Virus record (IMG/VR): IMGVR_UViG_3300028535_000001
Strand: one strand, 5' to 3'
From: a virus
DNA: 64,000 nt
A program made the position numbers and the translations under genes. Below, one piece after another: positions 4,638-26,615 of the stretch. Below the pieces are notes generated by a model. It did no database searches and was not told where the DNA came from. It worked only from the letters and a program-made list of their open reading frames with translations. Numbering within the stretch: the first letter of the stretch is position 1; every line of letters starts with the position of its first letter.

Positions 4638-5222
4638 TTATTTGTTTTTAACCTTATTTATTATCTTCTTAGCTATACTCTCTGGCGTATCACCTTCTGC
4701 TTTAATAGATACGAAACCAGGTTTATCTCTGTAGTAGTCAACCACAGGACCTGTTTCTTTTTTATATAAAGCAATTCTGTCTTTAATAACATCAGGTTTA
4801 TCATCAACTCTACCTCTAGCAGTTAGTCTTTTGATAACTTCTTCCTGACTTACATCTAAAAATACCACATTATCTATATCAATACCTTTCTTTTCCATGT
4901 CTCTAACTTGTTGCATATATCTTGGAAAGCCATCAAATACAAAACCATCTGCTTTGTCAACGGCGTCAAATACAAGTTTTAAAACTATATCATTTGGAGC
5001 AAAGTGACCTTTACCTAAATTAGATAATCTTTTGGCCATTTCACCACCTTTTTCTTTCTCTTTTCTCAATAGTTCACCTGGGTATATGTGTGGTATATTA
5101 AATTCATTTGATATAAATTTTGCATATGTAGATTTACCACTGCCTGGACCACCAATTAAAATAATTTTTGGTTGTCTAGCTTCTTCTAAAAATTTGTTTA
5201 TGTACTCTATAAATGATTTCAT
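4638..5222 (-). CDS. adk: Adenylate kinase (short-lid type)
   Basis: GGPGSGKST, GELLR, FDGFPR, RGRVDD...RIALY motifs. Confidence 0.9.
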   Translation of the reverse strand: MKSFIEYINKFLEEARQPKIILIGGPGSGKSTYAKFISNEFNIPHIYPGELLRKEKEKGGEMAKRLSNLGKGHFAPNDIVLKLVFDAVDKADGFVFDGFPRYMQQVRDMEKKGIDIDNVVFLDVSQEEVIKRLTARGRVDDKPDVIKDRIALYKKETGPVVDYYRDKPGFVSIKAEGDTPESIAKKIINKVKNK

Positions 5223-5356
5223 TTTCTTTTTCTCATCATTCTCTTTTTTTTAAGAAGAAAATAAGCATATGCTTTATTACTTTTCTTTTTTCTTTTCTTT
5301 TCTTTTTCTATTGGTGCTGAATTAAATTCATACGTAGCACTGTAAATATTATTCAT
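5219..5356 (-). CDS. 45-aa very basic protein (MNNIYSATYEFNSAPIEKEKKRKKKSNKAYAYFLLKKKRMMRKRK)
   Basis: Translated by hand. TAATG overlap with the upstream gene and ATGA overlap with adk indicate translational coupling. Confidence 0.65.
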   Translation of the reverse strand: MNNIYSATYEFNSAPIEKEKKRKKKSNKAYAYFLLKKKRMMRKRK

Positions 5357-24350: not shown

Positions 24351-24797
24351 TTACTTGATTTTTATAGTTCTAGGCTTCTTTGAGTCTGGAACAATCTTCT
24401 CTAAAGATACCTTTAAAAGACCATCTTTTAGTTCAGCACCCTTTACTTCGCAGTCTTCTGCTACAGTAAATGACTTACTAAAATATCTTTTAGCTATACC
24501 TTTGTGAAGTATACCATCATTGTCCTCAACCTCTTTAGTCTGCTCGTCTTTATTAGACTTGATTGTTAGAACATTGTCAGCATAGTCAACAGTTACATCA
24601 TTTTTAGAGTATCCTGCTAATGCTAATTCAATATCATAGGTAAACGAACCTGTTTTAACGATATTGTATGGTGGATAGTTTCCCATTCTCGTAAAATCTG
24701 TATCTAACATATGTTCAAAGTTGTCAAACATACTGTCAAACCCTACGGTTATTGGTCTTAAACTATTAAAGAATTGAATTGCTTTTGAATTGGTCAT
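24351..24797 (-). CDS. hsp20: Small heat-shock protein Hsp20 (IbpA-like)
   Basis: YPPYNI, IELALAG, LHKGIAKR.F..SF, AELKDGLLKV. Confidence 0.95.
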   Translation of the reverse strand: MTNSKAIQFFNSLRPITVGFDSMFDNFEHMLDTDFTRMGNYPPYNIVKTGSFTYDIELALAGYSKNDVTVDYADNVLTIKSNKDEQTKEVEDNDGILHKGIAKRYFSKSFTVAEDCEVKGAELKDGLLKVSLEKIVPDSKKPRTIKIK

Positions 24798-24799
24798 AT

Positions 24800-24860
24800 T
24801 AACCTCCTATTGTTAAGCAAAGTTATTGTTATAGACAACCCTTAATGGCATTGTCATAGT
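24800..24860 (-). promoter_or_regulatory. ROSE-like RNA thermometer in the hsp20 5' UTR
   Basis: AACUUUGCU-loop-AGGAGGUU pairs over the SD with a bulged G (UUGCU/AGGA); preceded by a second hairpin. Confidence 0.6.
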
Positions 24861-24910
24861 TATTTATATAAGTATTAATCTTCAAATGTCAACCATCTAT
24901 ATAAAATAAA

Positions 24911-25075
24911 ATGGTAGTTTTTATATAAGGGCGAAACTACCAAAACGCTCCGCAGCTTTAGTTTGTTTTTTTAAGGTGGTGCGAAACTAAGCGCAAATGC
25001 TAAAACAATCCACCATATCCGAAGCTATAATAGCTTCTTTAACGCTGTCATAGGACTTACGAGCAGCCTTGACCA
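24911..25075 (-). ncRNA. Putative structured ncRNA with tandem pseudoknots (manA-motif-like architecture)
   Basis: Locally GC-richer intergenic segment; loop-to-downstream pairings TTAGTTT/AAACTAA and TGGTAGTTT/AAACTACCA, plus hairpin GAAGCTA/TAGCTTC. Confidence 0.6.
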
Positions 25076-25118
25076 TAATATATATATCACTTTTATAGCG
25101 TTAAATTCCATAAATTTC

Positions 25119-25319
25119 TTATAAAAATCTCTCTTGTAAACGTTTCTTCCTCTTTGCATTAGCAATTCCTTCTTTCTTTTTTCGTCTCTTTTTTTCAGAA
25201 GGTTTCTCAAAATACATTCTTTCCTTATAATTTTTAAGGAAATTATCTTTTAAATTTTTTCTTTTTAAGACTCTTAAAGCCTGTTCTACATTACCATTTC
25301 TTACATCTACTTTTATCAT
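25119..25319 (-). CDS. rpsU: 30S ribosomal protein bS21
   Basis: V.VRNGNVEQALRVLKRK...YFEKPSEKKRRKK. Confidence 0.93.
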   Translation of the reverse strand: MIKVDVRNGNVEQALRVLKRKNLKDNFLKNYKERMYFEKPSEKKRRKKKEGIANAKRKKRLQERFL

Positions 25320-25388
25320 AATTCTTTCTCTTGTTTAATCCTTAAACGGTGGCGACCACTACATCGCCACCAAGGATTACACTATAGC

Positions 25389-26615
25389 TTAAACATTATC
25401 CGAATCATCTGTCCCAGCATCGCTGTCAGAATCATCGTCTTCGTTCTCGCTAAGATCCGATTGTTCGGTTAAATCTTTTTGTCTATTCTGTTCCATAATG
25501 TCTTCAACACTAGCACCAGAATCTACTTTAGTATATAACTCTACAAACGAATTTTTTGTATCATCATCAAATCTATTAGTACACATTGTAATAGCTTTTA
25601 CTTTATTATTAAATATCGCATAAGCTTGAGTAATGTGGACCAATCTTCTTGTTGAGATAATCTCGTCAACGCCACCATCAAAATAAGTTTTTCTGATAAC
25701 ATCAGCCCATGTAGTAAGCTTTTCTATGAAAGCTTTGTCTGATTTACCAGCTTGTTTTAATGTGTTAGTTAATATTTTTTTCTCAATAGCAACACTTGGA
25801 TATTTCTGTTCAAAAGTAACAGGAAATCTTTCCAAAAATGCCTCATTAAGAATGTTGGTTCCGATAAACTTACCGTCTTCACTACCTTGACCTTTAGTAT
25901 TGGCAGTAGCAATAACATTAAACCCTAATTTAGGTTTAACAAACTTGTTTATCTTTTTAACATAAACTCCTGAACCTTCAAGTATTGGTTGTAGACACAT
26001 AATCTTATTACTAGCAAGGTCAACCTCGTCTAATAATAACATAGCGCCTCTTTCCATCGCCTCAATAACAGGTCCGTTTTGCCATACAGTTTGACCATCT
26101 TTAAGTCTATAACCGCCTAACAAATCGTCCTCATCGGTTTCAATTGTTATGTTTACTCTAATCATTTCTTTCTTAGCCTCGGCACAAGATTGAATGACAC
26201 CCATTGTTTTACCATTACCAGATAAACCAGTAATAAAAATAGGATAAAACCTATTAGATTTTACAATAGATTTTACATCTGTATAATTACCAAATGGAAC
26301 AAATATTGGATCTTTTTTAGGGACAATGTCGCCTACTAAAGATGATACAATATAAGCGGCTTCAGATTTTGATTCAACCTCATTAGCCGTATCTTTTTTG
26401 ATAACTGGTTCTGGAACAGAAACGTCCTCACCGTCTACAGGTAATCTAAATAAAGATTTACCTAATTTGTAATCTTTATTTTTAATCAACCATTGTGGAG
26501 CATATTTACAGCCAAATTTTGCATTGGCTTTCTTTAACTGATCTACAGTTAACTCCTTTTTATTAAACATTGAATAAGCATGTTCAATAAATTGTGTTTG
26601 TTTAGTGTTTAGCAT
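25389..26615 (-). CDS. CobS/MoxR-like AAA+ ATPase
   Basis: TGLSGNGKT, ETDEDDLLGG, LLDEVD, ATANTKG, EAFLERF, ISTRRL. Confidence 0.88.
   Translation of the reverse strand: MLNTKQTQFIEHAYSMFNKKELTVDQLKKANAKFGCKYAPQWLIKNKDYKLGKSLFRLPVDGEDVSVPEPVIKKDTANEVESKSEAAYIVSSLVGDIVPKKDPIFVPFGNYTDVKSIVKSNRFYPIFITGLSGNGKTMGVIQSCAEAKKEMIRVNITIETDEDDLLGGYRLKDGQTVWQNGPVIEAMERGAMLLLDEVDLASNKIMCLQPILEGSGVYVKKINKFVKPKLGFNVIATANTKGQGSEDGKFIGTNILNEAFLERFPVTFEQKYPSVAIEKKILTNTLKQAGKSDKAFIEKLTTWADVIRKTYFDGGVDEIISTRRLVHITQAYAIFNNKVKAITMCTNRFDDDTKNSFVELYTKVDSGASVEDIMEQNRQKDLTEQSDLSENEDDDSDSDAGTDDSDNV

Follow-up and report, generated by a model that had tools for sequence, protein, structure and literature searches.

A conserved structured RNA behind the ribosomal protein S21 gene of pelagimyophages and its possible role as a 3' trailer

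The most abundant bacteria of the ocean, those of SAR11, are the hosts of pelagimyophages. No ribosomal protein is found in phages more often than S21; to our knowledge, nobody knows how phage S21 is used. The present study concerns a folded RNA directly behind such an S21 gene and asks how far this RNA extends, how it is built and what it might do. The window (the whole stretch of DNA analysed, 64,000 nt of IMG/VR record IMGVR_UViG_3300028535_000001) belongs to a T4-like pelagimyophage; among named phages, its closest relatives are the Pelagibacter phages Mosig EXVC030M and HTVC008M. On its minus strand the genes cobT, cobS and rpsU are followed by the structured RNA, a promoter and hsp20 (24797-24351). 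The open reading frame of rpsU (25119-25319, minus strand) encodes ribosomal protein bS21 with 66 aa, in keeping with the S21 annotation in Mosig and HTVC008M, and its product is about 50% identical to S21 of Pelagibacteraceae. Between cobS and rpsU a G+C-rich hairpin was noticed (25330-25385, minus strand), which may be a terminator or a processing site ahead of S21; the cobS-rpsU spacer of HTVC008M holds a tRNA gene.

The initial annotation had placed a folded RNA of three consecutive pseudoknots at 24911-25075. Sequence and coordinates were as described there, but the RNA was found to be larger and its fold partly different: it comprises 194 nt (25105-24912, minus strand), its first nucleotide lies 13 nt past the rpsU stop codon, and it is composed of a three-way junction, one hairpin and two pseudoknots. 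Its 3' limit precedes the hsp20 promoter, the RNA ending at this next promoter, which was read from the sequence at 24861-24892 (minus strand) with a -35 element TTGACA (24892-24887) and a -10 element overlapping a late-type TATAAATA (24868-24861). Of such TATAAATA sites the window holds 14, and 13 of them lie on the gene strand.

For comparison, 50 unique homologous regions were assembled from an S21-anchored IMG/VR search, an exact 15-mer search and nhmmer, and more than 150 further loci were added by two later pattern scans. Since indels in the RNA region shift every frame between relatives, the region is regarded as non-coding; a small ORF starting in the segment described below as the AU box was likewise dismissed, as its frames vary between relatives. 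The folding energy of the single window sequence is ordinary (z = -1.0), and therefore all support for the fold is comparative. The collection of homologues that had been proposed as a check for covariation yielded compensatory changes in the helices of P1, P3, unit 1 and unit 2, and their large number in the pseudoknot helices and in P1 and P3 indicates that the RNA fold is the object of selection. The folded RNA behind S21 is real and has been kept by evolution in hundreds of related viruses, whereas any function ascribed to it below is inferred.

One revision concerns the 5' part. Whereas compensatory changes in relatives upheld units 1 and 2 of the three proposed pseudoknots, unit 0 did not stand: its stem is paired in 58% of cells, which is the shuffle level, and the partner for its loop pairing is confined to the lineage of the window and one neighbouring lineage. 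It is replaced by a three-way junction, the 5' strand of which (25105-25097) lies outside the coordinates originally considered. In this junction, helix P1 is formed by a 5' strand at 25097-25105 and a 3' strand at 25038-25046 (minus strand; RNAalifold and pair counts), with changes on both sides at six of eight pairs. It encloses the AU box (25074-25096, minus strand), a segment of A and U only, near-invariant in the junction alignment and possibly forming a weak 3-bp hairpin, and the hairpin P3 (25047-25073, minus strand), which has a 7-bp stem (25073-25067/25054-25047, A25051 bulged) with both-sided changes at five of six pairs. The P3 loop consists of 12 nt (25066-25055; C25066 pairs with G25056) and carries a YUCRUAAG motif kept in about 100 unique relatives. 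Given 26 diverse junctions, RNAalifold unaided predicts both P1 and P3, with both-sided changes at 12 of the 17 predicted pairs. Together the two helices are paired in 93.5% of cells, 11 of 14 pairs are compensatory and none of 500 shuffles reached the observed values; in slid controls pairing falls to 30-57%. The position of the AU box is taken in the Mosig-like lineage by an ATAAATA box, which resembles a late promoter and lies 7 nt before P3. For the window's lineage a late promoter at this site was dismissed, given that the AU-box motif is not enriched in the window and is unlike the TATAAATA type; in the Mosig-like lineage the site may be such a promoter.

The junction is followed by hairpin B (25021-25037, minus strand; 7 bp and a 3-nt loop in the MFE fold), the position of which is taken in other lineages by a different hairpin or by a full pseudoknot. 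Unit 1 (24950-25014, minus strand), delimited by pair counts and outer-stem variants, was confirmed as a pseudoknot, as both its outer stem and its loop-to-tail helix covary, but the inner stem UGCG/CGCA assigned to it initially was abandoned, its 3' partner being present in 16 of 30 variants. The outer stem (25014-25010/24979-24975), of which at least eight complementary versions exist, encloses a U-rich loop 1 (25009-25002), a mini-hairpin (25001-24999/24992-24990) and the 5' strand of P2, the loop-to-tail helix (24989-24984/24964-24959); an A-rich loop 3 (24974-24965) and an invariant tail reaching 24950 complete the unit. The 3-bp mini-hairpin is paired in 100% of 30 variants, with two covarying pairs, and one pair of P2 occurs as UA, CG and GC. 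Among 33 unique variants the core of unit 1 is almost unchanged; the unit is restricted to some lineages, and many others keep the rest of the RNA without it.

Unit 2 (24912-24951, minus strand) was borne out by covariation of both helices: in 17 relatives of the same type 91% of cells are paired, seven of 14 pairs show both-sided changes and the score was reached by none of 500 shuffles. Its stem S1 (24951-24946/24933-24929, A24949 bulged) is represented, in the subfamily following unit 1, by nine or more distinct complementary sequences, loop L1 is UUU, and in S2 (24942-24934/24920-24912), which is joined by an A-rich L3 (24928-24921), three positions change in step. With covariation support for both helices in the unit-2 type as well as in unit 1, the two are H-type pseudoknots. 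A covariance model of unit 2, R1, finds unit 2 as its sole significant match in the 64 kb (44.9 bits, E = 1.7e-8) and unit 1 as a weak echo (12.6 bits); the 9-mer common to both units, in which internal evidence for structure had been seen, is present in the window but unconserved in relatives. Behind the last pseudoknot a U-rich tract resembling a terminator tail can be read from the sequence (24893-24911, minus strand). Such a tract occurs in some lineages only, for which reason termination at this point is uncertain; most relatives have the next promoter immediately after the pseudoknot. A terminator scan found no intrinsic terminator at the RNA, and the combination of S2 and U-rich tail in the window is without counterpart in most relatives.

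The suspected tie to bS21 proved to be strict. A pattern search of IMG/VR gave 120 matches, of which 116 are true copies and the other four are chance matches inside coding sequence; 113 of the 116 have S21 upstream on the same strand, and three are cut by contig ends. Thus all true copies with enough upstream sequence stand 3' of S21 on the same strand, followed by hsp20, a 322-aa ORF or other genes, and at one locus a small inserted ORF repeats the 3' end of S21. When loci were anchored on cobS instead, S21 was found in 73 of 74 with enough sequence. Of 95 unique copies, 91 have the start of P1 0-16 nt past the stop codon of the gene upstream (the remaining four distances are negative and represent parse slips), and therefore a terminating ribosome must open P1, although the short distance could perhaps reflect simple genome compaction. 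In cyanophage Syn33 cobS adjoins gp45 directly, without S21 and without a gap, so that S21 and RNA look like one inserted cassette. R1 found one match in the complete Mosig genome and no pseudoknot of the unit-2 type in 20 host rpsU loci, and the RNA is therefore specific to the S21 locus; with one significant match each in the window and in Mosig, a genome-wide terminator or a T4-type promoter/stem-loop cassette repeat was dismissed. The arrangement in HTVC008M diverges: S21 and the RNA are set apart by a 111-aa ORF, the RNA has lost P1, and P3 is preceded, at a distance of 7 nt, by a late-promoter-like box.

A link to hsp20, the other neighbour, had to be given up, as other genes follow the RNA in Mosig and elsewhere and hsp20 has a promoter and leader of its own. 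This leader (24798-24860, minus strand) shows a UUGCU motif ahead of the Shine-Dalgarno sequence, and the hsp20 leaders of four relatives (L074:741-803, L048:1131-1194, L079:459-521, L062:469-530) match the ROSE_3 thermometer at about 30 bits (threshold 43); it could be hsp20's own RNA thermometer. One pelagimyophage contig carries a glutamine riboswitch (glnA RNA, 67 bits; L064:1510-1560) downstream of hsp20.

Small RNA genes also occur around S21. In the SAR11 host Pelagibacter sp. HIMB1493 the initiator tRNA-fMet begins 13 nt after rpsU (L199:1708-1784), at the position of the phage RNA, which places two components of initiation next to each other. A derivation of the junction from this host tRNA was dismissed, the synteny being suggestive but the sequence similarity weak (median z 0.78). 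Near the S21 locus of relatives, tRNA genes with unusual T loops (L002:3141-3211, L100:1495-1565, L009:4101-4171, L055:1961-2031) were found by the Rfam tRNA model and missed by ARAGORN.

The RNA behind S21 matches no Rfam family and is uncatalogued. A scan of the whole window at Rfam 15 gathering scores gave no match, and E-value scans of the RNA and 30 homologous loci gave sub-threshold matches only. As to tmRNA, neither ARAGORN (tRNA and tmRNA) nor the Rfam tmRNA models found a match in the window RNA, and R1 gave no score against tmRNA pseudoknots. A tmRNA identity was dismissed, since a tRNA-like domain (G3-U70 acceptor stem, T arm, CCA) and a conserved tag frame are absent: P1 has no conserved G-U pair, the sequence after P1 is A-rich and not CCA, a local beta_tmRNA match of 18.7 bits (threshold 84) is confined to one lineage, and a GUCGCAA motif resembles the resume-codon region while the frames fail to hold across relatives. 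Mimicry of a CCA end or tRNA-like acceptor by S2 was dismissed as well, for the CCA is paired and some lineages end in GGCA.

The junction and at least one pseudoknot occur in all lineages, between which hairpins and pseudoknots have been gained, lost and exchanged. Mosig-like lineages possess a version of 330-400 nt with an additional pseudoknot, a further hairpin and an element here called X domain, which is absent from the window. The X domain is also found by itself, downstream of an SSB-like ORF and ahead of a promoter, and it extends at the 3' end a genuine permuted two-piece tmRNA (L546:4202-4560, region of IMG/VR contig 3300017719_000303; tag ANDNFASVDYAIAA), which scores 99.6 bits with RF04321 and 94 bits with RF01849 and is missed by ARAGORN. 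There it follows the terminal pseudoknot of the tmRNA, the order being that of the long S21 trailers; its occurrence in both settings links the RNA family to pseudoknot modules of the tmRNA type.

What, then, might this RNA do? In the reading that is favoured here, with a probability of about 0.4, it is a cis-acting 3' trailer that would cap and stabilise the S21 transcript and carry a specific recognition site. The RNA would be transcribed together with S21; it begins inside the footprint of a ribosome terminating at the S21 stop codon and folds into the three-way junction, with H-type pseudoknots stacked behind it. Every pseudoknot combines a U-rich loop 1 with an A-rich loop 3, which is the design of triple-helix pseudoknots. 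Their stack may act as a compact 3' cap that defines the 3' end or protects it against 3'-to-5' exonucleases, and this cap would also insulate S21 against the transcription unit that follows. A protein or the ribosome may recognise the single-stranded motifs that are invariant, namely the loop of P3, the AU box and the unit-1 core, and binding there would set the lifetime or the output of the S21 mRNA. The trailer is preferred because of the strict position, the single copy, the exchangeable pseudoknots and the sister modules at other 3' ends, and an exchange of modules in which the junction and at least one pseudoknot are retained fits generic structural modules. A block to exonucleases alone leaves the near-invariant loops and the very conserved core of unit 1 unexplained. 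The RNA may also be, as conjectured initially, a nuclease-resistant element or a protein sponge. Fold, conservation, strict position behind S21 and modularity are established, and from them we infer co-transcription, protection and a partner. An RNA that always accompanies S21, lies outside Rfam and is under strong selection offers a concrete handle on the use of phage S21.

Several other readings have to be weighed against the trailer. Nearly as likely is that one or more stable small RNAs, made from an own promoter or processed from the S21 transcript, act in trans on the translation apparatus or a host factor, comparable to the stable RNAs of the T4 tRNA cluster or to the body of tmRNA. It stays so close because of the invariant loops, which are conserved as if read by a partner, and because of HTVC008M, which keeps P3 and a pseudoknot behind the late-promoter-like box without P1 and without adjacent S21, an arrangement that hints at an independent transcript. 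The ATAAATA box before P3 in the Mosig-like lineage, the tRNA genes near relatives' loci and the behaviour of the modules as independent cassettes, with the X domain free-standing in other phage contigs and joined to a true tmRNA in one, point the same way. However, the 5' strand of P1 is situated upstream of any such promoter and P1 is strongly maintained by compensatory change, the unenriched AU box of the window's lineage is not a typical late promoter, and an RNA acting in trans has no known partner and gives no tRNA or tmRNA model match in the window. It is unlikely, if conceivable, that the trailer is instead a tmRNA-related, translation-coupled RNA partner of phage S21, in which the junction, melted whenever a ribosome terminates on S21, and the pseudoknots would attach to the ribosome or to S21 and assist in reprogramming host ribosomes toward phage messages. 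Rather improbable, too, is an operator to which surplus phage S21 would bind, at the junction or unit 1 of its own mRNA, and so lower stability or translation, as ribosomal proteins do by binding RNA that mimics their sites on rRNA. That S21 is small, basic and RNA-binding would suit it, as would the strict linkage, a P1 start within reach of the terminating ribosome and the conserved single-stranded motifs; known operators of ribosomal proteins, however, are located in 5' leaders and not in 3' trailers, any resemblance of the RNA to 16S rRNA would be conjectural, and the host rpsU is without such an RNA and has the tRNA-fMet gene next to it instead.

That unit 1 could be a small-molecule sensor of the SAM-II/SAM-V type, switching the downstream pseudoknot or terminator, must be considered very unlikely. 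Stem, U-rich loop 1, A-rich loop 3 and a 3' tail paired into the loop give the same topology, the core sequence is very highly conserved, the host uses SAM-V riboswitches, and the Rfam check that had been suggested for these families yielded local matches of low score, 15.8-18.4 bits with SAM-II and 11-11.5 bits with SAM_alpha. These scores are far below the gathering thresholds of 44 and 36 bits, respectively, and the matches skip the ligand-binding loop as a local end; with the SAM-V model nothing was found at E <= 10, and the SAM-V sequences of the host are unlike unit 1. Moreover, unit 1 is missing from many lineages that retain the rest of the RNA, and no gene to be regulated lies between the RNA and the next promoter. 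A functionless RNA, either a decaying relic, for instance of a tRNA or tmRNA once captured, or a cassette border at the DNA level as in T4-type phages, is already disfavoured and hardly credible. The host order of rpsU and, 13 nt on, tRNA-fMet, the shuffling of modules between lineages and the adjoining early promoter could be expected of it, but four helices have been maintained through dozens of compensatory changes in lineages whose S21 proteins are only about 55% identical, the similarity between junction and tRNA-fMet is weak (p <= 0.05 in 23% of instances), and the RNA is present as a single copy, not as a repeated border.

Among known structured RNAs, the cyanophage manA motif had been named as a possible relative. 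manA and wcaG (RF01745, RF01761; PMC2864571) are, like the S21 trailer, structured RNAs of marine T4-like phages with a likewise obscure function, and manA was reported upstream of ibpA (hsp20) genes, among others (PMC2864571). Membership was not borne out: RF01745 gave no match at E = 10 on 24700-25400 (threshold 55.2 bits), nor did it at E <= 1 on 10 homologous loci. As a positive control the same model recovered a true manA RNA with 64 bits in Mosig (MT647606.1 108164-108371; L472 1501-1708, minus strand), in the 5' leader of a rubrerythrin gene; in HTVC008M its match is weak (25.9 bits, 5037-5223). The S21 RNA differs from manA and wcaG in sequence and in fold, and it is a 3' trailer and not a 5' leader; the placement of manA in 5'-UTRs has no parallel here, as the hsp20 promoter lies between RNA and hsp20 and Mosig has another gene after the RNA. 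SAM-II and SAM-V riboswitches (RF00521, RF01726, RF01826) share with unit 1 the H-type pseudoknot with U-rich loop 1 and A-rich loop 3, and the 3' tail motif of unit 1 is similar to the SAM-II consensus. Unlike these riboswitches, and with host SAM-V sequences that differ, the S21 trailer does not stand in a 5' leader.

At the 3' ends of messages, the 3' UTRs of tobamoviruses and tymoviruses carry consecutive H-type pseudoknots and a tRNA-like end, with a role in stability and translation. The S21 trailer would likewise close a message with successive H-type pseudoknots; the tobamovirus and tymovirus RNAs belong, however, to eukaryotic RNA viruses and possess an aminoacylatable CCA, whereas the CCA-like end of S2 in the S21 trailer is paired and not universal. 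The pseudoknot string of tmRNA, above all the terminal pseudoknot of the two-piece (permuted) tmRNA of alphaproteobacteria, is also similar in that tandem H-type pseudoknots are swapped for hairpins or multiplied across lineages, and the terminal pseudoknot of the permuted tmRNA described above is of the same build as those of the S21 trailer, although the window RNA, unlike tmRNA, has neither a tRNA-like domain (G-U pair, CCA end) nor a tag reading frame. As the X domain is common to a phage-encoded two-piece tmRNA and to S21 trailers, marine phages may draw on a pool of RNA modules that can be moved between 3' ends.
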